From: a virus
Taxonomy: Duplodnaviria > Caudoviricetes
Strand: one strand, 5' to 3'
DNA length: 50,179 bases
Virus record (IMG/VR): IMGVR_UViG_3300043652_000004
Location: 1 to 50,179 of that record
Shown here piece by piece: positions 10,486 through 27,388 of the stretch; positions within the stretch are counted from its first letter, which is position 1; every line of letters starts with the position of its first letter. The translations under genes and the position numbers were made by a program. The notes below the pieces were generated by a model. That model had not been told where the DNA came from and searched no databases. It saw only the letters and a program-made list of their open reading frames with translations.

Positions 10486-10708
10486 CCCATCGCTGTTGTT
10501 TCACCCTTGCCCGATACTTCTTTAACTTTTCGTTTCTCCCGGGTATCTGCAAGTAGCGCAGTACCGTTATGTTCATCTGTAAATCACAATCGCTGCACAC
10601 TGGCCTCCAGCCGTTGTTGTCCGCGCATATACTCCATTGGTAGCGCGCTGGTGCGTTGCATCGCACGCATTTCATTTTCCGCAGGGCGGCTTCTGTGTAG
10701 GGTCGCAT
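10388..10708 (-). CDS. Zinc-finger-like protein
   Basis: CVRC...C...CSDC. Confidence 0.6.
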   Translation of the reverse strand: MRPYTEAALRKMKCVRCNAPARYQWSICADNNGWRPVCSDCDLQMNITVLRYLQIPGRNEKLKKYRARVKQQRWGEPNEDKARKRHTDRIQSARIATPYRRHNAET

Positions 10709-10711
10709 TCT

Positions 10712-10767
10712 TGTAATTGGGTAGTTGCATGGCCCGCCAAGCATAGCGGCGCACCTAAGCAGTTACA
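10712..10767. promoter_or_regulatory. Inverted pair of 17-bp operator-like motifs
   Basis: TGTAATTGGGTAGTTGC ... GCACCTAAGCAGTTACA, at the head of the accessory/replication gene block. Confidence 0.5.
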
Positions 10768-10840
10768 AGCGTGCCGGCCGCCAGCGGTCGCGACCCTGCT
10801 AGCCCGTGCTAGCAGGCTGCCGCAATGCCGCCTAGCAGGC

Positions 10841-10865
10841 CCGCGCGGGCCGAGCCGCTAGGGTA
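10841..10865. repeat. 25-bp dispersed intergenic repeat (copy 1)
   Basis: CCGCGCGGGCCGAGCCGCTAGGGTA; 24/25 identical to 41436-41460. Confidence 0.85.
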
Positions 10866-10934
10866 CCAGCGACCCTATGCCCGCGCGGGCCACTGGCACG
10901 CAGGCGTACGCGCTGGCGTAGCGTTAAACTTTCG

Positions 10935-11396
10935 TTAAAGCAGGTCTGCTGGCTGTTTACCCAGCCCGGCATGGTCGTGACTATGCAGGCGCGTGCGAAT
11001 GCTCGCCTTACTTAGCGCAGGGGCATGAATGGGATGGTCCCACAGCGGTCCAGTGTCTTCTTCACCCAATACGACCATCATGCAACTGTTTATCAGCTTG
11101 CGTACTCCGGCCTGCCTGTCCTCTTCACCAAGGTTGAGTAATTCTGCCTCGGTAGTAGTGTGGCGGAACTTGCTTACTTCGATACCCGGCACCGGCTTGC
11201 CAGCAAAATTCACTACCTTGGCCAGCGCGATTATCGTTAACTCACCCGATTCCTTCTCAACGATGGTATGGAATCCCACGGCCACGAATTCCCCAGTATT
11301 CAGCTTTACTACATGGGCGGGCACCCGAATCGGGTTTACCCCATCCAGGGTTGTGTCTATACCTACAACCGGCAGGTTTGTCTTTTCGTAGTTCAT
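10935..11396 (-). CDS. Hypothetical protein, last gene of the tail operon (possible tail-tip chaperone)
   Basis: ATGA coupling to the 1904-aa tail gene. Confidence 0.7.
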   Translation of the reverse strand: MNYEKTNLPVVGIDTTLDGVNPIRVPAHVVKLNTGEFVAVGFHTIVEKESGELTIIALAKVVNFAGKPVPGIEVSKFRHTTTEAELLNLGEEDRQAGVRKLINSCMMVVLGEEDTGPLWDHPIHAPALSKASIRTRLHSHDHAGLGKQPADLL

Positions 11397-14300
11397 TGTT
11401 TGTGTATCCCTGAGTTGTGCGATGCTACTCGGTGCGACGCTTCTCCACCGGCCATGTACGATACGCCGCCCACGTTTATTCTTACCAGCCAGCCATCGCC
11501 CGTTAGTGTCGCGCTTATCACCCTTTCCATGCCCCAGTCAGTTACTACCGACTGACCAAGCATTTCTGTTGCCAGCTTCGTTTCGCCGCTTGGCAAGTCG
11601 AATGGGGTATCTAAGCCGCCTATCCACGCCGCGCCACGATCTGTAATCAGGCGTATGCGTGGTCCCCAGTAACGCTGCAAGCCTTGTATTGTTCTGCTGT
11701 GCTTACCTGCCGACGTTGGCAAGTCGATGCAATCTATAACGCTGTAACCGGGTACGGCGTCCTTGGCTTGCAGCATACTGGTCAGCCACATTTCCTCACC
11801 TACGCAGTATCCGCCACCGCCGCCGCCGCCGCTACCACTGCCCGATCCACTTGCGGGTATCGTTACGTCACCCGATCCTATGTACACTACACCATCCGAA
11901 TCGACGAGATTACTTTGGTCTGTGGTGGCTATCAGCGTTTGCGAGCCGCCGATGCCGTAGGGGTCAACAAAATAGAAGTACCAAGTCTGCGTAGTACCGC
12001 GCGTCTGAGTCTTGGTAACGCTTGCCGTCGAGTACGATACCTGTGCCGAGCCACCCAGAAACGTACAAGCCGCACAAGTGAACACTATGCTGGCAGGAGT
12101 CGCCGTGTTGTACGTGTACGAAATGGGAGTAGCCGTAAGCAGTGACCGTACGCCAAGCCAGTTGATAGGCAGCAAGTTATTCTGGTCTCCCAATTTACTA
12201 CCACTGCCCTTCGTGTCGAGCTGACTGGGGCCGGGCACCCAGTGACTCGGTGCGGTTATACCGCCCTGCTGCTTCTCAACCATGAATCGATCTGTGTAGA
12301 TAACGCTGGTGCTGTCGCCCAGCCCAGCCCGGTTAGCCCGAATGAAAAAGTGACACCGCTTGGCATTGGTAGGCTGAGCAGAAGTGTCGATGACAGCGCT
12401 GTACCGCGTACTAGGATTGTTACCCGCCCCCACCTTGAACCCTGGGCTGAAGTAGTAGGTACCATCTTCATACATAAACCCTACGTCTACATTAGTCAGT
12501 CCGGCAAGCAGTGACGTAGCCACGGCGTAAAACGATACGATGTACTTGCCCGGATAGAGTTCGAGATTGAATGAAGAACCCGATGGAGCGAACCGGGTTG
12601 CATCTTGCGTGTAGGTACTTATCGACGTGAATGCGAGATACGACCCACCCGCTGCGTCGCCAAACGCGCTGGAAATGTAGTTGTGCGTACCCGGTGGGCT
12701 ACTCTTGATGATAAGTGGCAAGTTCGCGCCCGGCGCAAAGTAGGTGTATTGCGATGGAAGAATGTTCGCGCTGTTCATACCGCTTACTTGGTTTTGAATA
12801 AGCGCGCGGTTGTATATGGCGTCGAGCAGGCTCGACTTGGTAGTCCACACAGCTTGGAATTTAGACCGGAAGGTCGTGCCGACAATCGTGGTATTGCCGC
12901 TCATGTTGTTCCACGCTACCGGGGTGGTCAACGTGGCAAGGTACGCCGTTAACGCGGTAATGGCGTTGTCATAGGCTGTCTTTTCTGTGGCTGTACCCCA
13001 CGCATCCGCTTGGGCGTCGATACCCGACTTTTCAGCAATTATCACATTATAGTCTGTAACTACCGTGGTCTTTTCGGTTTTGCTCAGGTTGTTGTCGCTC
13101 GCAATCGTGGCCAGTGCCGCCGATGCGGCTGCCGCTGCCGCCGCTGCTTCGGTCACCGCTTCACCCAGTGCTGCTGTCACTGCACTAGGGTCCGTCTGGT
13201 CGGGCACCAGTAAGTCTTCACTCGTCGTCATTACGCTGCCGATACCCGATGCGTTTACCGCCGCGACGCGCGCGGTGTACAGCCCGGCTAGCACGTTGTT
13301 CAACTGATACATCAAGCCCTTTTGTGGCGGCAGAGTTATCCAGTTACCGTTATCCTTGCGATATTGCAACGTGTACTTGACTGCGTTCGGCGTACTGGCC
13401 CACGATATGAATAGCGTAGTACCAGCCGACACTTGATGCACAGTCGGGAATGCCTCGAGAATAACTACGCTGGGCGCAGCCTGCGCACTTGGCGGTACTA
13501 CACTAATGGGCGGGGTAAGAATAGGCGTGCCGAGATCGATGGCATCGTACTTACTTTGATTCACCGCCGCGGCGGTTACACTCACGACCATGCCCGCGCC
13601 CGTGTCGTCTGTACTGTCCTCCGATACCGACACGATTCTAAACTGCTGGGCTACCAGCGACGTTTTCTCGACCAGCCATACCGACTGCGGCAACGGCGCT
13701 ACGGTGAACGGTGTAGTAACGTGCAACGTGCGCCCGCCGATAATGCTGGTTATGGTGCGGCTTTGCGTAGTACCGTCTGGCATCACGCAAGTCAAGGTGT
13801 CCCCCACGCTTATCGACCCTACGCTTACGGCGCTCGCCAGTGCGGCGTTATCCAAATGCACGTTTACTGCATAGGTTTGTACTCCCTGCTTATGCAGGCT
13901 TGCTTGCAACGTGGTACCCGCTACTGCGAACGCACCCGTGTAAGTCTGCGTACTCGGTACGTGCGCGCCACCTATCGCAGCGGCCAGAGTCGTGGGGTCG
14001 AGAGTTATGTTGGCGGTAAGCGTGCGATGTACGTTGCCGATGGCAGCGGCTAACGTTGTATCTGCCATTGTCGCCAGCAGCGAAAAGTTTTCTGTCTCGA
14101 ACGTGCCGGTATCGTAGCTGTCCCGAATACTGCGCATTGTTGTTATGCTTTGCGTAGCTACTTCGCCACCTGTTGTGTCCTTCGTACGGAACACGATGCC
14201 GGCCATGGAATAGTCGTGCTTTATCCACACCACGGTGCCGAAGCTGCCAGCCATCCAGTAGTCGCCCGTTACCGGCTCGATCCAGAGACCCCACTCGTAG

Positions 14301-17107
14301 TGCCACGGCTCGTCCGGGAATATGGGTGAATGTACGACGCTGGTAGTGGGGAAGTATTCGCTCGCTTCGACGGGCACCCACGCAGGGTCATCCAGCAGCC
14401 TACGCCACTCTGTCAACGTACCATCCATCAACTTCTGCGCAATCGTTGTCAGTACCGGGTAGCTGCATTGCACGCCACCGGCAGGCATGGGGGATGAACA
14501 TACTAGCTGCGTGCCCGTGATACCGTAGAGCGTGCGGTACGCAACAGCCATGTCCGACCGCTTGTACAGCGGCAGGTTCATCTGCGTGTCCATGTGCTTT
14601 TGCAAGTGCATGGAGTCGTACGAGAACAAACCGATATCAGCCCCATTGCCCGAGCCGAATGTCGCCAAACACTGATCTACAGTTTGGTTGGGGTTCTGTG
14701 GGTCGCAAGTGCGCCCGTTAGCGGTATCGTAACCGCTAATCATTACGCAGTAGTTCCAGTCTGTTATTGTAAATGGGTTGCCCGCATCCGCACGAACCTG
14801 GCACGCCCAGCCCACGTATATAGATTTGGACACCGATGCGACCGCGGCTACGTCCGTATCCAACGGTATGGGGTGGGTTCCGTCGGCCACACCGCCGCTG
14901 CAAATAACTCCAGCTGTGTTGAATAGGCGCCAGTGGAAGCTATACCCGCCATCCGCATTCGCTGCCGCCGTTGCCGCTGCGATGCGCTGCGCTTGCGATA
15001 TGCCCGGTGCGACAGTAGCCGCTAGCGCCGTAGATGCGAGCGTGGCTGATAAGTCGTAGTCTTCCTCGAACGTATCGCCCAGTCCCTCGACGGCGCTCAG
15101 TAACGTGGTGTCTGCAAGGGTCTGTGCAAGCGTAAAGGTTCTATTACCACTGCCGCCCAGCGTAGCGGCTAGCGTCGCGCTAACGGTCTTGGCCAGCGAC
15201 AATGCGTGGCCCTCTACCATACCTGCCGCTACGCTCGCGCCCGCTAATGTCGCGGCTAGAGTAAGCTGCTTTATGCTCGCTATGGCCGCCGCGACACTCG
15301 CGCCCGCCGTCGTTGTCGCCAGCGAGTAAGTCTCCTGCGGTATCGGTATATACGTGATGACTATGACGCCTTGCGCACCATCACCAGTCACACCCGTATT
15401 GCTACTGCCGCCCGCGCCTCCGTACAGCCCACCATTGCCCGCTGCGGTCGTCGCATTGCCCGCGCCACCGCCACCGCCGCTACCTGCCGAGCCCCATTCA
15501 GTACCCGCCGCACCGTTGTTGAATGCTGTGCCGCCCGCACCACCAGCGCCCGCACCACCAGCGCCGCCCGCATTGGTCGCAGTAACACCGGGCTGCCCTG
15601 CACCACCCGGCCCGCCAGCGCCACCGCTACCGCCACCGGCCGCGCCCGCACCACCAGCATAGGTAATATCCCCCACGCTGGTAGCGCCGCTGCCGCCGCC
15701 TCGGGCAAGAACGGTACTGGGGGATACAAACCAAGTGTCCCCACCATCGTTAATATCTGTTGTCGTCGATCCCTCGCCACCCTCGCCAATCTGGTAACTT
15801 ATTACGTCACCGGGCGTCAACGACAAGGCGTCTACCCGTGCGTAATCGCCGCCTGCTACTCCCACTGGGGGTACACGCAACCGACCGCCGCGACCGCCGC
15901 CGATGCACTCTACCTTGGCAGTCAAACAATCCGACGGCACTGTCCAGGGTGTTGAGTCATCTGTCAGTATAATCTGGGTACCGCTCGGGTTAATGTCTAC
16001 GAACGTTGCTGCCAGCGATGCACCTACCGTCTTGGCCAGCGTGAATGTCGTGACTACCGGTGCCGTACCTGCCAATGCCGCTGCCAACGTGGCGTCTGCC
16101 AACGTGGCGGCGAGCGTGTTAGGGTGTCCCACCGCAGCGGCGGCTGCTAAGGCGGTACCAGCAGTAGTCACCGCCAGTGCGAAACCATGCCCGTTAATCA
16201 GGGCTACATTTACAGTGGCGTCAGCTAGCGTTGCGACCAGTGTGTCAGTGTACGAATGCGTCAAGGCCAACGCTGATGCGACTGTGGTGCCAGCTAGCGT
16301 TGCGGCTAGGGTGTCCGTAAGTTCCTTAATCAGCGATGCTGACACGCCTACTGGGTCAGTTGTTGCGTCCAGCGAGTAGTTATCCCCTTCGTTAAATGCC
16401 GCTGCCAATGCTGCGCCTGCCGTGGCACTGAATGTATAAGTCACTAGTGGGGTGTACTCTATAACAAGCAGGCCGTCACCACCCGCGCCGCCGTTATGCC
16501 CTTTCGATCCACCACCGCCCGCTCCGGGGCCACCTGCACCGCCGTTCGTGCTTAGGCTGCCCGCGCCGCCGCCACCGGGGCCGGTCGAGCCCCATTCACT
16601 GCCTGTGCCGCCGTTTGCGCCGCCTGTAGCGCCGCCTGCGCCGCCTGCGCCACCATCGCCAGCCCCGCCGACAATGCCCGCCCCACCGTTACTCCCGTTT
16701 GCGGCTGGGCCTGCCGCGCCGCCGCCGCCACTGGTGGGCGTGCCGCCTGTATGTACGCCACCGATGGCAGTGTCTCCACTGCCCGCGCCTTTGCCTAGGC
16801 ACTGGGTCGTCCCGGTATTGTCCTTAATCCAGGTACTTGTTCCGTTGTTGTGGGTCGTTAAACTTGCGGTGCCTGCGCCACCTGTCCCCACGTTAAAGTC
16901 TGTACCTGCCGACAATACCGCGCCGATGGTAAGCGCAAGGTTCGAGAACTCGGAGTAATCGCCACCGATGCCGCCGCCGCCACTAGCGGCGACGTTTATG
17001 CCAGACTGACCACCGCCAAGGCAGCGAATCGTGTTCGCTCCATTATTCCAGTCCGACGGCACTGTCCATGTGCCGTCTGCACTGGTAAGTATTACCCGAG
17101 TTGTCAC
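11393..17107 (-). CDS. Multidomain tail protein: 2 Gly-rich domains + Ala/Thr repeats + SxxK serine hydrolase + C-half of lambda-J-like tip protein (FN3, helical and CBM-like regions) + C-terminal Hint domain
   Basis: WTVPSD..GGG Gly-rich domains; ASVSK; GDTLTCVMPDG..QSRTI...PQSVW....L..QQFRIVSVSE (J-type); C...SHN Hint. Confidence 0.85.
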   Translation of the reverse strand: MTTRVILTSADGTWTVPSDWNNGANTIRCLGGGQSGINVAASGGGGIGGDYSEFSNLALTIGAVLSAGTDFNVGTGGAGTASLTTHNNGTSTWIKDNTGTTQCLGKGAGSGDTAIGGVHTGGTPTSGGGGAAGPAANGSNGGAGIVGGAGDGGAGGAGGATGGANGGTGSEWGSTGPGGGGAGSLSTNGGAGGPGAGGGGSKGHNGGAGGDGLLVIEYTPLVTYTFSATAGAALAAAFNEGDNYSLDATTDPVGVSASLIKELTDTLAATLAGTTVASALALTHSYTDTLVATLADATVNVALINGHGFALAVTTAGTALAAAAAVGHPNTLAATLADATLAAALAGTAPVVTTFTLAKTVGASLAATFVDINPSGTQIILTDDSTPWTVPSDCLTAKVECIGGGRGGRLRVPPVGVAGGDYARVDALSLTPGDVISYQIGEGGEGSTTTDINDGGDTWFVSPSTVLARGGGSGATSVGDITYAGGAGAAGGGSGGAGGPGGAGQPGVTATNAGGAGGAGAGGAGGTAFNNGAAGTEWGSAGSGGGGGAGNATTAAGNGGLYGGAGGSSNTGVTGDGAQGVIVITYIPIPQETYSLATTTAGASVAAAIASIKQLTLAATLAGASVAAGMVEGHALSLAKTVSATLAATLGGSGNRTFTLAQTLADTTLLSAVEGLGDTFEEDYDLSATLASTALAATVAPGISQAQRIAAATAAANADGGYSFHWRLFNTAGVICSGGVADGTHPIPLDTDVAAVASVSKSIYVGWACQVRADAGNPFTITDWNYCVMISGYDTANGRTCDPQNPNQTVDQCLATFGSGNGADIGLFSYDSMHLQKHMDTQMNLPLYKRSDMAVAYRTLYGITGTQLVCSSPMPAGGVQCSYPVLTTIAQKLMDGTLTEWRRLLDDPAWVPVEASEYFPTTSVVHSPIFPDEPWHYEWGLWIEPVTGDYWMAGSFGTVVWIKHDYSMAGIVFRTKDTTGGEVATQSITTMRSIRDSYDTGTFETENFSLLATMADTTLAAAIGNVHRTLTANITLDPTTLAAAIGGAHVPSTQTYTGAFAVAGTTLQASLHKQGVQTYAVNVHLDNAALASAVSVGSISVGDTLTCVMPDGTTQSRTITSIIGGRTLHVTTPFTVAPLPQSVWLVEKTSLVAQQFRIVSVSEDSTDDTGAGMVVSVTAAAVNQSKYDAIDLGTPILTPPISVVPPSAQAAPSVVILEAFPTVHQVSAGTTLFISWASTPNAVKYTLQYRKDNGNWITLPPQKGLMYQLNNVLAGLYTARVAAVNASGIGSVMTTSEDLLVPDQTDPSAVTAALGEAVTEAAAAAAAASAALATIASDNNLSKTEKTTVVTDYNVIIAEKSGIDAQADAWGTATEKTAYDNAITALTAYLATLTTPVAWNNMSGNTTIVGTTFRSKFQAVWTTKSSLLDAIYNRALIQNQVSGMNSANILPSQYTYFAPGANLPLIIKSSPPGTHNYISSAFGDAAGGSYLAFTSISTYTQDATRFAPSGSSFNLELYPGKYIVSFYAVATSLLAGLTNVDVGFMYEDGTYYFSPGFKVGAGNNPSTRYSAVIDTSAQPTNAKRCHFFIRANRAGLGDSTSVIYTDRFMVEKQQGGITAPSHWVPGPSQLDTKGSGSKLGDQNNLLPINWLGVRSLLTATPISYTYNTATPASIVFTCAACTFLGGSAQVSYSTASVTKTQTRGTTQTWYFYFVDPYGIGGSQTLIATTDQSNLVDSDGVVYIGSGDVTIPASGSGSGSGGGGGGGYCVGEEMWLTSMLQAKDAVPGYSVIDCIDLPTSAGKHSRTIQGLQRYWGPRIRLITDRGAAWIGGLDTPFDLPSGETKLATEMLGQSVVTDWGMERVISATLTGDGWLVRINVGGVSYMAGGEASHRVASHNSGIHKQ

Positions 17108-17123
17108 AGCCTACCCCTTGTTA

Positions 17124-17528
17124 TCAAGCGTTACCTTCGGTAAGGGTGAAGCTGGTGATTGTCTCAGTGTCGCCTACGCCAACGGTCGTGCTCGATGCGA
17201 TCATGTCGCCACCGCCGCCCGAAGTCGTGACCGTACCCTGCATGTGACAGGTTGTGGCGCCCGAATCAAGAATGCGGAAGTAACCGACAGTGCCCGCATT
17301 CGTCGCGGTACCAGTCCAGGAACCCGACAAGGACTTTACGCCGCCCGATGCGGCACTTAGCCAGTCCGACGGCAATGTCAATTCTGCAAGCAGCGTACCG
17401 GTCTGCGTTGCAGCGCAGTTTGCCGGGGCCGAACCTGAAAGCAAGCGCAGCTTGGGGGCAGTACCTATGGTGGACTCGGTAACATCCGCCCGAGCATTGC
17501 GTACCGCGGTTGAAAATTGCAAAGCCAT
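17124..17528 (-). CDS. Small beta-rich virion structural protein (134 aa)
   Basis: AGGAG RBS; RNA..D...LRLLSGSAPA...GTLLAELTL...GYFRI pattern resembling phage fibre-associated proteins. Confidence 0.7.
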   Translation of the reverse strand: MALQFSTAVRNARADVTESTIGTAPKLRLLSGSAPANCAATQTGTLLAELTLPSDWLSAASGGVKSLSGSWTGTATNAGTVGYFRILDSGATTCHMQGTVTTSGGGGDMIASSTTVGVGDTETITSFTLTEGNA

Positions 17529-17540
17529 GACTCTACACTC

Positions 17541-19115
17541 CTATTGAATCGCGTCAACGACGACGCTGGTGGTTGTTGCCGACACTACGCGGCCAGCTCT
17601 GCGTTTTCCAGCTCTTGCTGAATCAAGTATCTTTGCTACGTGCCCCGGCATTACCGGGGCGGTGTCTAGTCCTGCTCCGAACGTCACCAATTCTGAATCT
17701 AGTACCGACGTGTACAAAATCCACAAGCCGAACCGGCGAGCCTGTCCTTGCGACTTGCACCACATGGCGGTAACTTGAGTCTCCTGTATGCCGTAGCGGT
17801 CAATCACTTTTTGGTCGGGGTACTCTACATATTCCACCTTTTGCTGGCCGAAGTCATTATCGTCTATGTAGCTTACCAGTGCCGCCGTGTAACGAGTATC
17901 CTTCGACGTGCCTTGGTAATTGAACTCACCATTGACCACATTGGCGTCGCTGTACACCATCGTGGGGTCGGTCGGCATATCTGCGCTTGCGTTAATCACG
18001 CCGCCCGCCCAATAGGCGATGCCACGGAATACGCTGGCGAGATCGCTAAGCACTTGATACGCACTGGCCTGTTGCTGTAAGTAGACGGCGCACGTAAAGC
18101 GCGGCTCCATACCGCCATTACCATCGGGCACCAGTCCATCGCAATACTGCGCGATTGTGTAAAGACCCCACTTATTGACTTGGCTGGCGGTAACATAATT
18201 GCCAAGACCATAGCGAGTGTTAAGGATAAGGTCGTAGAACACCCATGCCGGATTATCTGTCCAGGCTATTTTGAATGTACCATCCCACACGCCTGTGTAA
18301 ACTCTGGTGAGAGGGTTGTAGTTGGTCGGCACCTTAATCACTCGGCCATAGAGATCGTAAGCCCGCGTAGGGATACTCGAGAATTGCTCGGCGTCGATAA
18401 CAATGCCGATGAGTGCCGTGTTCGGATAGCGATAAACGGAGTCAACTATTTCAGTGTAACTCTGTATCGTCGTGGTGTCCGCTATCGTCGCAAGGTTCGC
18501 GTTCGCAGTTAGTCTGCGCACACGCACAGTCCAACCGCTCGTCGCTGTGGGCAAGCTTATCGTATGCGCCCGCTCGTATTCGCCCGTCGCGTGGCCGTCG
18601 AAGGAACTGGTGATTTTCGTAACGTACGCGCCGCCATCAGTTGCTAAATCTATGGCGTAATCAATCCTGTAACCTACGATGTCGCCTGTCGTCGTGTCGT
18701 CCTTACTCAAACTCGGTATTCCCAACCTTATGCGAAGGCTCGTTAGAGTAAGGTCATTTATCGCCTGCACCCACGGCGCGGTCGATTTAAGTTCTAGCCC
18801 TACACCGATTTCGTTCTGCACACTGGGGAAGCCCGCCATAGCGGATTGAGTTTGCGTACCAAGGCGGCTGTCGATGACTACGTTTTTAAAGTTGAGCGAA
18901 CCGTCGGCGTTCGCCACGGGCGTTCCATCTAAATAAATGTCTTGTAGACAACCCGCCGTGCCATGGGCGAAGCCCAGTATCTGGCCTTCACTAACTACGT
19001 CTACAATCCTTGCCAGCGCGGTGCTGTGCAGGCTGTTAGGTGCTTCGGTTGCGGCATGGGGCGTGCTGTCACCACCCTTATAACCGCACCACGGCATTGT
19101 GTGACGGGTAATCAT
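17541..19115 (-). CDS. Tail tip attachment protein J, N-terminal half
   Basis: DVVSEGQI, IYLDGTPV, YPNTAL, WTDNPAWVFYD, EPRFTC, SQGQARRFGLW; stops just after RRAGRVVS. Confidence 0.9.
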   Translation of the reverse strand: MITRHTMPWCGYKGGDSTPHAATEAPNSLHSTALARIVDVVSEGQILGFAHGTAGCLQDIYLDGTPVANADGSLNFKNVVIDSRLGTQTQSAMAGFPSVQNEIGVGLELKSTAPWVQAINDLTLTSLRIRLGIPSLSKDDTTTGDIVGYRIDYAIDLATDGGAYVTKITSSFDGHATGEYERAHTISLPTATSGWTVRVRRLTANANLATIADTTTIQSYTEIVDSVYRYPNTALIGIVIDAEQFSSIPTRAYDLYGRVIKVPTNYNPLTRVYTGVWDGTFKIAWTDNPAWVFYDLILNTRYGLGNYVTASQVNKWGLYTIAQYCDGLVPDGNGGMEPRFTCAVYLQQQASAYQVLSDLASVFRGIAYWAGGVINASADMPTDPTMVYSDANVVNGEFNYQGTSKDTRYTAALVSYIDDNDFGQQKVEYVEYPDQKVIDRYGIQETQVTAMWCKSQGQARRFGLWILYTSVLDSELVTFGAGLDTAPVMPGHVAKILDSARAGKRRAGRVVSATTTSVVVDAIQ

Positions 19116-19792
19116 GCTGGGCCCTCCACACGGCCGTTCATCATATCGCCACCGCCACCCATGCCGCCTGTTGATCCACCGGTTACCGGCGGGGCTACGG
19201 CCAAGGAACTGTCCTGTACGTCTATCCCCGCACTTGCCACGGCGCTGCCGACCTTTAACCGACCGTAGAGCAACGGTACGGGGTGACCCTGTGCCTCGGT
19301 ATTGACAATACCACTGAATGCGTAGCTGGGAGTGCTGTCTGCATTCTCCTTGGTCGATAAACTCTTAGGGTGGGGTGCAAGTAATTGCACGATACCGCCA
19401 GCAATCAACCCTATGCCGGCGATAACTAAATCTTGGGCTACTATTCCCGCCAGCCCGCCAGACCCAACGCCGATGTAGAGTCCTACTACGATAAGCACAA
19501 TTCCAAGAATAATGTTTATGATGCCGCCGTTCTTCTTGCCCATATACACGGGCGCGATGCGAATATCGTCACCACCTATATCGAACAACAGCTCATCTTC
19601 GGTAAGGTTATTCTTGCCGGCGAACACGGCATAGGCCACGCCGAAGTTATGGGATTCACTCATCCACTTGCGAAAACCCTTTAGCTGGCTATCCAAAGCC
19701 GCTATCGCTTCGCGCGGCGATGCGACGTCCATGCGAAACACCCGGCCAAACTTTCGGCCCAGTGTTCCATACAACCGAATGTTCCTAACCAT
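19112..19792 (-). CDS. Tail assembly protein I (lambda gpI-like)
   Basis: IRLYGTLGRKFG, SYAFSG..NT..QG.PVPLLYG. Confidence 0.9.
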   Translation of the reverse strand: MVRNIRLYGTLGRKFGRVFRMDVASPREAIAALDSQLKGFRKWMSESHNFGVAYAVFAGKNNLTEDELLFDIGGDDIRIAPVYMGKKNGGIINIILGIVLIVVGLYIGVGSGGLAGIVAQDLVIAGIGLIAGGIVQLLAPHPKSLSTKENADSTPSYAFSGIVNTEAQGHPVPLLYGRLKVGSAVASAGIDVQDSSLAVAPPVTGGSTGGMGGGGDMMNGRVEGPA

Positions 19793-25637: not shown

Positions 25638-26543
25638 TCAGGACGACCGGGTGATTTGCAGGTTGGTACCAGTAACGCTGTCATACAACCCTTGGAAGTT
25701 CATCGAGATACTCACTGGACCTTCGTCGTTAGTCGGTACGTCGCCCGAAGTGTACTTGAGTTTCGGTACCAGAAAATCGAAGGAATTAGTGCCGTCACTA
25801 CAATGGAACGCGAGAGACGAAATGGTTTCCTGGACAAACTTGTTGTAGAGTGCAGCCGTCTCGAAGTATGCAACCATCGAGCCCGTTAAGTCACTGCGAC
25901 CGATACTCGGCTCGAGAGACATGTTGGACCCAATGACGTTGCGCGCCGCAAGGCCGTTCTTGAGCGAAAGATTTACCTCGCTCACTACTGCGATGGCCGA
26001 GCCGCCTTCCTGCACTGTTCCACTCAGTGCGTTCATAGGCTGGGTTACGCCCGCCGCCGGGTAGGTCGCGCCAGCGATGATCGCTTCAGCTACTGCCACG
26101 GATTGGCCCATGAACCCGAAATCGGAAGTGACGATGCCGCCGACAGTGGCCTTTAAGTCCCACGTATCAATTTCCATACCGAGGTAGCGAATATACTCGC
26201 CAATATCTTGGAAATCGCGCTCGATGGTAAATGACTTGCGCAGGATGCCGTTCTTCAGAACGTTGGTTGTCCAGGTGCCGCCCAGCGCAGCTTCCATGAA
26301 GTCGTCGTGTGAATGATTTGACAGCTCGGTGTTGATGCTGCCCTTGGCCGAGATAAGGCCGTGGGTAATGCCGGGTATCTGTCGATCCGCCCTCAGTTCT
26401 TGTGATTGAAAGATAGTCTTGTCGAGCGCAAGACTGTTACCGTTGTTACGAAGTGCCTTGAACACGGGCGTAGCGGGAGTGACGCCGTAGGCAGTCTCCG
26501 CGATGTACCCGATGCTTTGGCGAGAACCAGAAGCCTGACCCAT
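25638..26543 (-). CDS. Major tail tube protein
   Basis: YIAET.YGVTPATP, SQELRADRQ, KSFTIER.F.DI. Confidence 0.9.
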   Translation of the reverse strand: MGQASGSRQSIGYIAETAYGVTPATPVFKALRNNGNSLALDKTIFQSQELRADRQIPGITHGLISAKGSINTELSNHSHDDFMEAALGGTWTTNVLKNGILRKSFTIERDFQDIGEYIRYLGMEIDTWDLKATVGGIVTSDFGFMGQSVAVAEAIIAGATYPAAGVTQPMNALSGTVQEGGSAIAVVSEVNLSLKNGLAARNVIGSNMSLEPSIGRSDLTGSMVAYFETAALYNKFVQETISSLAFHCSDGTNSFDFLVPKLKYTSGDVPTNDEGPVSISMNFQGLYDSVTGTNLQITRSS

Positions 26544-26552
26544 GACACACTC

Positions 26553-26975
26553 CTATCGTTGAGTACGAGAATACCAGTAAACCGAAACGCTGCACACGTA
26601 GCCCGCCGTTGCCTCGCTTGTTCGGACAGATGACGGCGAGCTACGCCGAACATAAACCGTCTGTCCGTTTTTAGTCAATGCTATGCCTGCTTTGAAAGCA
26701 TCCAGCACTTGTTGAACATAGTCGTAGATAGCCTTTATACCTGAATCAACCGGGGCCACAATATCGACTTGGAACACGCCTGAGTATTCATCCATACCAC
26801 CGTCGCCAAGTGATATAGTCATGCGCTGGGCATTCAAGTTGTATGTGCGCGCGTAGAAACCTTCCTGTGGGTCGAAGGACACTGCCTCGTATGCAGTAGG
26901 TAGATTCATACCGATGGCGATGTAATGATCGACCAGAGCGCCGTTTATATTGTTGAGTACGCTATCGTTACTCAT
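26553..26975 (-). CDS. Tail terminator-like protein
   Basis: GVFQVDIVAP..SG motif; synteny. Confidence 0.75.
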   Translation of the reverse strand: MSNDSVLNNINGALVDHYIAIGMNLPTAYEAVSFDPQEGFYARTYNLNAQRMTISLGDGGMDEYSGVFQVDIVAPVDSGIKAIYDYVQQVLDAFKAGIALTKNGQTVYVRRSSPSSVRTSEATAGYVCSVSVYWYSRTQR

Positions 26976-27388
26976 GGGTGCATCCTCGCCGCTACGCCCC
27001 GTACGATAGTCTTCCACTTGGCGATGTTTATGCGGACCATGCCAAATGGAGCCTGCTCCTTGCTACGACCGTATTCCAGTTCAATAATGTAGTAGAGATT
27101 ATTAGTCAGCCATGCCTTTTGCGAAGCGTCGGGCTGGATAGTCTGTAGTACCGCCGCCTTGGCATAACTGCGCGTAGGGTCTGCAAATTCATTTACTCCT
27201 GGTACGGGCGCACCCATGCTCGGCTGCCAGTTAGTCACGGCAAGGCCAGTCTTTACCGGCGTAGCGTCGATAATGTCGGTGAACACCGCTATCGAAATCT
27301 GGCGATGAGCTTCATCTAACGTAGCACCAGCCTTCTCAGCAAACGCCGCTAGCTGCCCGCCAAAATCTGTACCGAATCGTCTTCTCAT
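26972..27388 (-). CDS. HK97 gp10-like tail completion protein
   Basis: TPVKTG....NW, NNL.YI.ELEYG.S.QAP.GMVR. Confidence 0.85.
   Translation of the reverse strand: MRRRFGTDFGGQLAAFAEKAGATLDEAHRQISIAVFTDIIDATPVKTGLAVTNWQPSMGAPVPGVNEFADPTRSYAKAAVLQTIQPDASQKAWLTNNLYYIIELEYGRSKEQAPFGMVRINIAKWKTIVRGVAARMHP

Follow-up and report, generated by a model that had tools for sequence, protein, structure and literature searches.

Lambda-like phages and F-type tailocins rely on the tail-tip protein J to recognize the host and to trigger DNA ejection. In the soil phage genome of IMG/VR virus record IMGVR_UViG_3300043652_000004 (here called the window, 50,179 bases), J is divided between two genes on the minus strand by a 3715-nucleotide (nt) cassette (13826 to 17540), whose long open reading frame (ORF) runs on in frame into the C-terminal half of J. 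The N-terminal half (P0001, 524 amino acids [aa]; 17541 to 19115) carries the FNIII-A and Phage-tail_3 hub domains and ends, by extrapolation, in the beta-sandwich that decorates hub domain IV (HDIV); its C terminus, ...VVVDAIQ, is followed by TAG at 17543 to 17541. Relative to intact J, the insert consists of a spacer, a 134-aa gene in the same frame as the J N-half (P0002, 17124 to 17528), and codons 1 to 1094 of a 1904-aa fusion ORF (P0003, 11393 to 17107), which starts with GTG at 17107 and has no in-frame stop over 5.7 kb. Similarity to J picks up at residue ∼1095 to 1100 of this ORF (...SISVGDTLTC..., window ∼13825 to 13810), and the J C-half exists in no other form than as the last 810 residues of the fusion protein. 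The original prediction, made from the letters of this DNA without database searches, had placed the end of the J N-half at 17541, the resumption of J about 1,100 codons into the 1904-aa ORF near 13820, and a cassette of ∼3.7 kb fused to the C-half, all of which agree with these coordinates. We consider it probable that J functions here as two chains and that the second chain adds three side arms, every arm bearing an enzyme-like domain together with two glycine-rich domains.

Both halves match J models at E values of 1e-38 to 1e-217 and in the correct order; the split of J is far beyond chance. P0001 is matched by the Pfam families PF24801 (FNIII-A_GpJ; 138 bits, E = 1.8e-40) and PF13550 (Phage-tail_3; 68 bits, E = 9.1e-19), and it matches lambda gpJ with an E value of 5.5e-102. 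In the 1051-aa J of Ralstonia phage Dina, residues 2 to 512 align with N-half residues 4 to 521 (57% identity), and residues 517 to 725 align with residues 1099 to 1314 of the long ORF (38% identity). The profile of PHROG 2589 is covered at positions 7 to 509 by the N-half and at 514 to 708 by ORF residues 1100 to 1312, that of PHROG 31 at 264 to 765 and, by the same ORF residues, at 772 to 973. Likewise, the solved F2-pyocin fiber (25vf_A) aligns at 6 to 506 with the N-half and at 519 to 724 with the C-half, and the nearest metagenomic J (the reading frame of locus L044) at 9 to 526 and 526 to 860. These alignments of both halves to intact homologs, which the original prediction had proposed as a check, are contiguous and leave 0 to ∼12 loop residues missing at the break; its impression from the spacing that little or nothing had been lost was correct, and nothing structural appears to be gone, judging from the aligned blocks. 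Among the 144 loci matched by both halves, the same eight rank as the top eight for each half (five different J-N DNA sequences, since L007, L086, and L087 share one and L044 and L100 share another), and the halves therefore derive from one interrupted ancestral J lineage. Judged as a member of TipJ, the locus has the N-terminal hub block, the following block (at ORF residues 1095 to 1320), and the right gene position, but the blocks are not on one polypeptide, because the TAG, the 134-aa gene, and a frame change intervene. The genome holds a single copy each of J-N and J-C.

Beyond the break, the core of the J C-half (residues 1095 to 1320 of the fusion protein; 13148 to 13825) comprises the rest of the beta-sandwich, the last HDIV strand, a linker, and FNIII. 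It is followed by a distal central fiber (residues 1321 to 1760; 11828 to 13147) with a repeat/helical region and a distal domain. Residues 1326 to 1447 match phrog_38688, and residues 1630 to 1716 match residues 1399 to 1486 of the L044 J at 40% identity; repeats in the distal part are common to the proteins P0005 to P0009.

Shine-Dalgarno-like motifs precede the starts of all three genes (P0001, P0002, and P0003). As predicted, the stop codon of the J N-half overlaps the ribosome binding site of the 134-aa gene: TAGGAG at 17538 to 17543, read directly from the DNA, contains a Shine-Dalgarno-like AGGAG 9 nt upstream of the ATG at 17528 (caa TAG GAG tgt aga gtc ATG). P0002 and P0003 are separated by TGA TAA and 13 nt, and AAGGGG precedes the GTG start of P0003. 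The recorded gene calls start the J N-half 6 codons later (P0013, 518 aa) and the long ORF 15 codons later (P0004, 1889 aa); for the latter we favor the upstream GTG because homologs of the glycine-rich domain align from residues 1 to 4.

P0001 and P0002 lie in the same frame, only the TAG and four codons apart, and if the TAG were read through, sometimes or always, the N-half and the 134-aa protein would form one 663-aa chain, with J still in two chains, the first of them ending in the small protein as a C-terminal domain. Near relatives lend this some substance: the J genes of L044/L100 (L044 8986 to 13457), L116, and L117 carry three to six in-frame stops, every one of them TAG, and three of the six TAGs in L044 align with glutamine in the window's J, which suggests TAG recoding in this J lineage. 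No tRNA gene was found in the fetched parts of L044, L116, and L117. The window too has no tRNA gene, its long genes (1122, 704, 679, 547, and 517 codons, and the 1904-codon ORF) contain no internal TAG, and 16 of its 74 long minus-strand frames end in TAG; on these grounds we rejected recoding of TAG in the window. Furthermore, the 134-aa gene is preceded by an AGGAG and starts with an ATG of its own, and a second pair of genes (26553 to 27017 and 25638 to 26543) is also in frame across a TAG, an arrangement expected one time in three. Read-through at this site is accordingly quite improbable.

The 134-aa protein belongs to phrog_3758 ("virion structural protein"; E = 1.1e-26), a widespread phage family of ∼135 aa whose members lie at the ends of tail modules in Pan4, Seuss, KPP25, Papyrus, and other phages. 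Its matches in Atlas are only to unnamed phage clusters, with a weak lead to CBM_4_9 (12% of members).

An exhaustive HMMER search with residues 1 to 1094 of P0003 returned 758 proteins at an E value of ≤0.001. At the N terminus, residues ∼1 to 220 (16448 to 17107) form a first glycine-rich domain that was seen through HMMER matches only (query residues 4 to 211 with P0179, 3 to 221 with P0243, and 5 to 222 with P0265) and was not reported by Pfam. A second copy at residues ∼376 to 590 (15338 to 15982) is supported by HMMER and also by PF21722 (Gly_rich_2; residues 386 to 586), with 34.4 bits against a gathering cutoff of 24.3. Homologs of the glycine-rich domain elsewhere often make up a whole protein of 220 to 260 aa or form an N- or C-terminal domain. 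Polyglycine-rich "brush" domains serve as antireceptors on other hubs according to one study (PMC13243795), which does not imply identity with the PF21722 fold. A DNA repeat family (D9; 17352 to 17379, 17039 to 17066, and 15917 to 15944) encodes (T/L)-(V/L)-P-S-D-(W/C), a motif common to the 134-aa protein and the start of both glycine-rich domains; this short likeness hints that the 134-aa protein may be related to the start of the glycine-rich domain.

Residues ∼700 to 1005 (14093 to 15010) form a domain resembling serine hydrolases of the beta-lactamase/DD-peptidase fold, as recognized through HMMER homologs, their profile, and a structure model. No Pfam model reaches this domain. All 19 homologs collected are stand-alone proteins of 294 to 397 aa, and no Pfam or PHROG family was found in the 4 of the 19 that were scanned. 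In the alignment of 20 sequences, S69 and K72 of an SxxK motif (ASVSK in the window) are invariant. As regards the second (Tyr/Ser-x-Asn) and third (K/H-T/S-G) motifs of the superfamily, the alignment shows an invariant Y141 and an H145 present in at least 90%, both as alignment positions only. The profile of the family matches PDB 5tgf_A (E = 6.8e-12), followed by 6-aminohexanoate-dimer hydrolase and R61 DD-peptidase. The model has a predicted local distance difference test (pLDDT) score of 90.7 and finds 347 PDB chains at an E value of ≤0.001 with Foldseek, headed by R61 DD-peptidase (E = 4.6e-9; template modeling [TM] score, 0.59 to 0.62) and also including mycobacterial beta-lactamase, FmtA, and family VIII esterases (TM, 0.5 to 0.62). 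As modeled, residues ∼700 to 1005 thus have a serine beta-lactamase/DD-peptidase fold; enzyme activity is only predicted. Compared with R61 DD-peptidase, class C beta-lactamase, and family VIII esterase structures (1hvb, 3i7j, FmtA 4gdn, EstG 7u1b, and 5tgf; TM, 0.5 to 0.62; Foldseek probability, 1.00), the window domain and its relatives have an invariant SxxK and an invariant tyrosine, but identity is only 10 to 16% and the window domain is embedded in a tail protein.

Ala/Thr-rich repeats separate the glycine-rich and hydrolase units. The third block (residues 1006 to 1094; 13826 to 14092) leads into the J C-half, and similar blocks lie at 15983 to 16447 and 15011 to 15337, with the DNA repeat families D2, D4, and D10. 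The fused module can be described as a chain of units found elsewhere as separate small genes. A long foreign module is present, as predicted, but the name of fiber module given to it is better replaced by its contents: two glycine-rich domains, a beta-lactamase-fold hydrolase, and Ala/Thr repeats.

Where the break falls can be located by comparison with lambda, in which residues 4 to 500 of gpJ align with residues 15 to 515 of the N-half. Lambda gpJ has an extra beta-sandwich at residues 483 to 569 between HDIV strands 477 to 482 and 570 to 578 (PMC10721106); the same sandwich is named an OB domain adorning an HDIV loop (PMC11101478), and in phage LSH1, this HDIV decoration is absent from the minimal hub (PMC13243795). 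By extrapolation from the alignment, the break would fall at about lambda residue 505 to 510, inside the HDIV decoration. We surveyed 80 viral and 80 metagenomic J loci (160 in total, with 138 distinct J-N sequences). At 77 of the 80 viral loci, the two parts of J are contiguous in one frame with a gap of 4 to 40 nt; gaps of 79 to 121 nt occur in L134, L135, and L137. In an IMG/VR viral contig (L005), the gap at the same point is 601 nt, an in-frame insertion of ∼200 aa (10495 to 11094) that has no Pfam match, in a J frame that is open for at least 1613 aa and has further long C-terminal extensions. With gaps in relatives ranging from 4 to 40 nt up to these 601 nt, the loop at the break, by extrapolation part of the decoration, varies in length.

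To model re-association of the halves, we combined P0001 with residues 1095 to 1320 of P0003 as a heterodimer, using alignments of 23 and 24 rows. The complex scored 0.77, and the best of three controls scored 0.00; in calibration, 58 of 80 solved complexes and 2 of 110 mismatched pairs attained the score mark, counts that apply only roughly with our own alignments. At least 90% of the contacts are the same across runs, the partner has a pLDDT of at least 78, and the tightest contacts are cross-chain strand pairings, of N-half residues 491 to 496 with fusion residues 1155 to 1158 and of N-half residues 476 to 479 with fusion residues 1177 to 1180. In the model, these pairings look as completion of HDIV and its sandwich in trans would. 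The complex model shows likeness, not binding.

From these results we propose the following course of events. An ancestral single-chain lambda-type J would have been interrupted, in a surface loop of the HDIV beta-sandwich, by 3.7 kb of DNA that supplies the stop codon of the N-half, a gene for a 134-aa virion protein, and a new start that puts a 1094-aa module in frame ahead of the J C-half. The two chains would re-associate by beta-strand complementation, the N-half giving the first sandwich strands and the preceding HDIV strand and the fusion protein giving the remaining strands and the following HDIV strand, so that a normal trimeric hub and central fiber result. At each of the three break points, the N-terminal 1094 residues of the fusion protein would then extend outward as a side arm that contains Ala/Thr repeats, a serine hydrolase domain of the DD-peptidase/esterase-like kind, and, at the free N-terminal end, two glycine-rich domains. 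The 134-aa protein probably rides on the arm or helps its assembly. We establish here how the genes are arranged, their colinearity with intact J, the descent of both halves from one ancestor, the hydrolase-like fold, and the variability of the loop; virion assembly, arm geometry, and what the arm domains do follow by inference. The original prediction of a two-chain J that tethers an appendage to the tail tip is borne out as far as the split, the fusion, the single ancestral J (shared top relatives), and the controlled complex model are concerned, and its appendage is part of what we infer. In keeping with a working J, the genes look intact and expressed, with 1904 open codons, Shine-Dalgarno-like motifs, and the H-M-L-K-I set upstream.

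Several points weigh against this proposal. The architecture is known from a single genome whose best J-N match in the collections searched is only 62.5% identical, and the public data found for this genome consist of one DNA run available as contigs, which may come from the source sample. The role given to the 134-aa protein is a guess, its single-sequence model being poor (pLDDT, 52.1). The complex model passed its controls and thus supports re-association, the part of the prediction that it was meant to check, but its pass may be memory, since single-chain J structures have been solved (8iyk and 25vf) and the two partners are halves of one gene. The geometry would also be unusual: the free end of the arm is the N terminus, and the arms would be monomeric, since the three break points are separated from one another at the periphery of the hub. 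We found no solved example of such arm geometry here.

The split itself was seen nowhere else. A contig end truncates eight of the surveyed loci. Among the remaining 130 distinct informative J loci, none has a stop with other genes between the J blocks. Of 43 non-self proteins matching the J-C block, 41 have J-N directly before it on the same chain, and the remaining 2 are partial matches in RHS-type proteins. None of 148 compared HMMER matches to residues 1 to 1094 carries J-N, J-C, or the distal part. The search of other genomes for the same split, which the original prediction had proposed, was negative, with 0 of 130 distinct informative loci and 0 of 41 J-type proteins. As for close relatives, with or without the cassette, none was found by megablast of the region against 50,697 phage records or by a peptide-pattern scan of IMG/VR with the 1904-aa protein, and tblastn of the 1098-aa N-terminal part against phages gave no match. 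A search of 5.8 billion proteins with the 1904-aa protein returned itself and eight partial matches, mostly to the repeat region at residues 1298 to 1454. No published description of a split J was found among the papers listed in one thin literature search, judged by title or abstract.

A one-off architecture could be a recent, harmful accident that inactivated J, in which case the genome would belong to a defective, dying, or helper-dependent lineage without a working tail tip. Its uniqueness among the 130 loci and 41 proteins fits such an accident, as do the lack of any relative sharing it and the fact that the genome is known from DNA only. An accident would hardly be expected, however, to leave a stop-free 5.7-kb ORF joined in frame at the exact residue where J resumes, with the start signals intact. 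All neighboring tail genes are intact as well, the complete record has terminal repeats and is evenly covered at a depth of 13.6, and the same site tolerates a 200-aa insertion in another phage (L005). G+C content at third codon positions (GC3) is 0.56 to 0.69 in the segments of the insert and 0.56 to 0.73 in 12 other genes; lying inside the range of the genome, the insert is not obviously recent. We judge inactivation unlikely.

The genome context is that of a complete phage. The window is rated 100% complete, has direct terminal repeats, and carries nearly all of its genes on the minus strand. The J locus sits just where a J gene is expected, after homologs of the lambda tape measure (H), M, L, K, and I, in that order; these tail genes upstream of J belong to phrog_24, 14, 18, 30, and 32, respectively, and all neighboring tail genes are intact.

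As the record is a metagenome assembly and the insert contains Gly/Ala-codon repeats, a chimera joining the J gene to unrelated fiber DNA at the junctions has to be weighed. All sampled words of 13300 to 17800 are present in one public run, a soil metagenome available as Logan contigs, and a single contig of that run (26,898 bases; depth, 13.6) covers 11000 to 19500 without differences or gaps and spans both junctions, at the same depth over this region as over its flanks. This run may be the window's own source and so amounts to a second assembler, not a second sample; the junction check called for by the original prediction is passed in the sense that a different assembler bridges both junctions, but possibly from the same data set. 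Other contigs of the run, all aligning as short pieces only, fall on the Gly/Ala-codon repeats of the insert, whereas both junctions lie in unique sequence outside the repeats. A chimera would, in addition, need two breakpoints placed so precisely that J becomes colinear again and stays in frame, and we regard it as very improbable.

We also considered whether the cassette might be removed to restore a one-chain J, as an intron, an intein-like element, a transposon, or a segment excised by site-specific recombination. The fusion ORF ends in a segment of ∼140 aa after a poly-Gly run (11396 to 11827) that begins with Cys and ends in SHN-S, and this Cys...His-Asn-Ser arrangement at the far C terminus is Hint-like by motif only; the segment has no Pfam match at an E value of ≤10, no PDB intein match at an E value of ≤10, and no named Atlas cluster. 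At least one J homolog does carry Hint domains: an 851-aa protein from JGI (P0068) has PT-HINT and Hint_2 matches near its N terminus, and its FNIII-A domain is matched in two stretches, so that an intein may lie inside that J. In the window, protein splicing is excluded because stops and a frame change separate the ORFs. No Rfam family, and hence no intron family, was found in 11000 to 19500 at an E value of ≤1, and no direct or inverted repeats flank the junctions, which led us to reject an intron, a transposon, and excision. No contig of the Logan run joins across the cassette, a weak argument in that contigs drop rare variants. Taken with these results, removal of the cassette has next to no probability.

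The closest known systems place the two-chain J among single-chain relatives. Lambda gpJ (8iyk) and the F2-pyocin fiber (25vf) have the same domain order and belong to the same sequence family across both halves, and lambda has the same H-M-L-K-I-J neighborhood, but each is one polypeptide, whereas the window's J is broken in the HDIV sandwich (by extrapolation) and has 1094 foreign residues before its C-half. The L005 J has its extra ∼200 aa at the same point between conserved J blocks, but it is a single ORF with no stop, extra gene, or new start, and its insert is five times shorter than, and unrelated to, that of the window. T5 has a separate central-fiber protein, pb4. More generally, siphophages divide the hub in various ways, as gpL plus gpJ in lambda versus single-chain T5 pb3 and LSH1 gp25, and the point of division is described as a focus of hypervariability (PMC13243795; PMC10721106). 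These known divisions also spread the hub fold over more than one polypeptide, but they fall between domains (HDI/HDII, or after FNIII), and the window's cuts into a domain and brings along an inserted gene and a fused arm.

Homologs of the 134-aa protein at the end of the tail module are found in Pan4 gp24 to gp26, Caulobacter phage Seuss gp33, Papyrus gp31 to gp34, and KPP25 ORF006. In Pseudanabaena phage Pan4, a Gly_rich_2 protein is encoded two genes after the 134-aa homolog, and in Mycobacterium phage Papyrus, a minor tail protein with the annotation D-Ala-D-Ala carboxypeptidase is encoded three genes ahead of the 134-aa homolog. All of these cassettes consist of separate genes downstream of the hub genes, whereas that of the window lies inside J. 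Profile comparison of the window's hydrolase family with Papyrus gp31 (E = 0.24) and Pan4 gp25 (E = 0.58) was not significant.

It is possible, and we advance this only tentatively, that the HDIV loop is a natural docking port at which a cassette entered, with the hub completed by fragment complementation and three monomeric arms, N terminus outward, tied into the hub fold, every arm bearing a DD-peptidase/esterase-like enzyme and a pair of glycine-rich domains of the adhesin type. If true, attachment by domain splitting, and not through an adaptor or fiber-binding site, would be a new way of mounting a side appendage on a siphophage, and the HDIV loop would be a ready-made engineering site. 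A natural two-chain J would show that HDIV and its decoration can assemble from separate polypeptides, would point to a loop able to take up inserts ranging from 200 residues (L005) to an entire cassette, and would exemplify the welding of small tail genes onto a hub, here a glycine-rich domain, a beta-lactamase-fold enzyme, and a 134-aa virion protein. The case rests on one metagenomic genome and opens no long-standing question; its use lies in the study of tail-tip mosaic evolution and in the design of phages or tailocins for laboratory strains.

Other J homologs encountered in the searches have features of their own. P0055, P0058, and P0071 represent three clusters of J-N proteins of 532 to 535 aa, 71 to 82% identical to one another, that end ∼20 to 30 residues beyond the window's break point in an acidic tail of the ...TDESG... 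type and, on the basis of sequence, may represent another type of short or split J. When viral, metagenome, and genome contigs were scanned for these three, only relatives of ≤57% identity turned up, all of them single chain where readable. In L035 (9016 to 10527), a J homolog has one in-frame TGA at a tryptophan conserved in the family (VALVS*TDP), either as a prophage pseudogene or because TGA is read as tryptophan. The J genes of L086 (a 2.5-Mb metagenome contig) and L088 are 60 to 61% identical to the N-half, lie in long bacterial contigs, and are probably prophage genes. In L088, a transfer-messenger RNA gene (17219 to 17570) lies ∼6.7 kb downstream of where the J N-half match ends and possibly marks an integration site.

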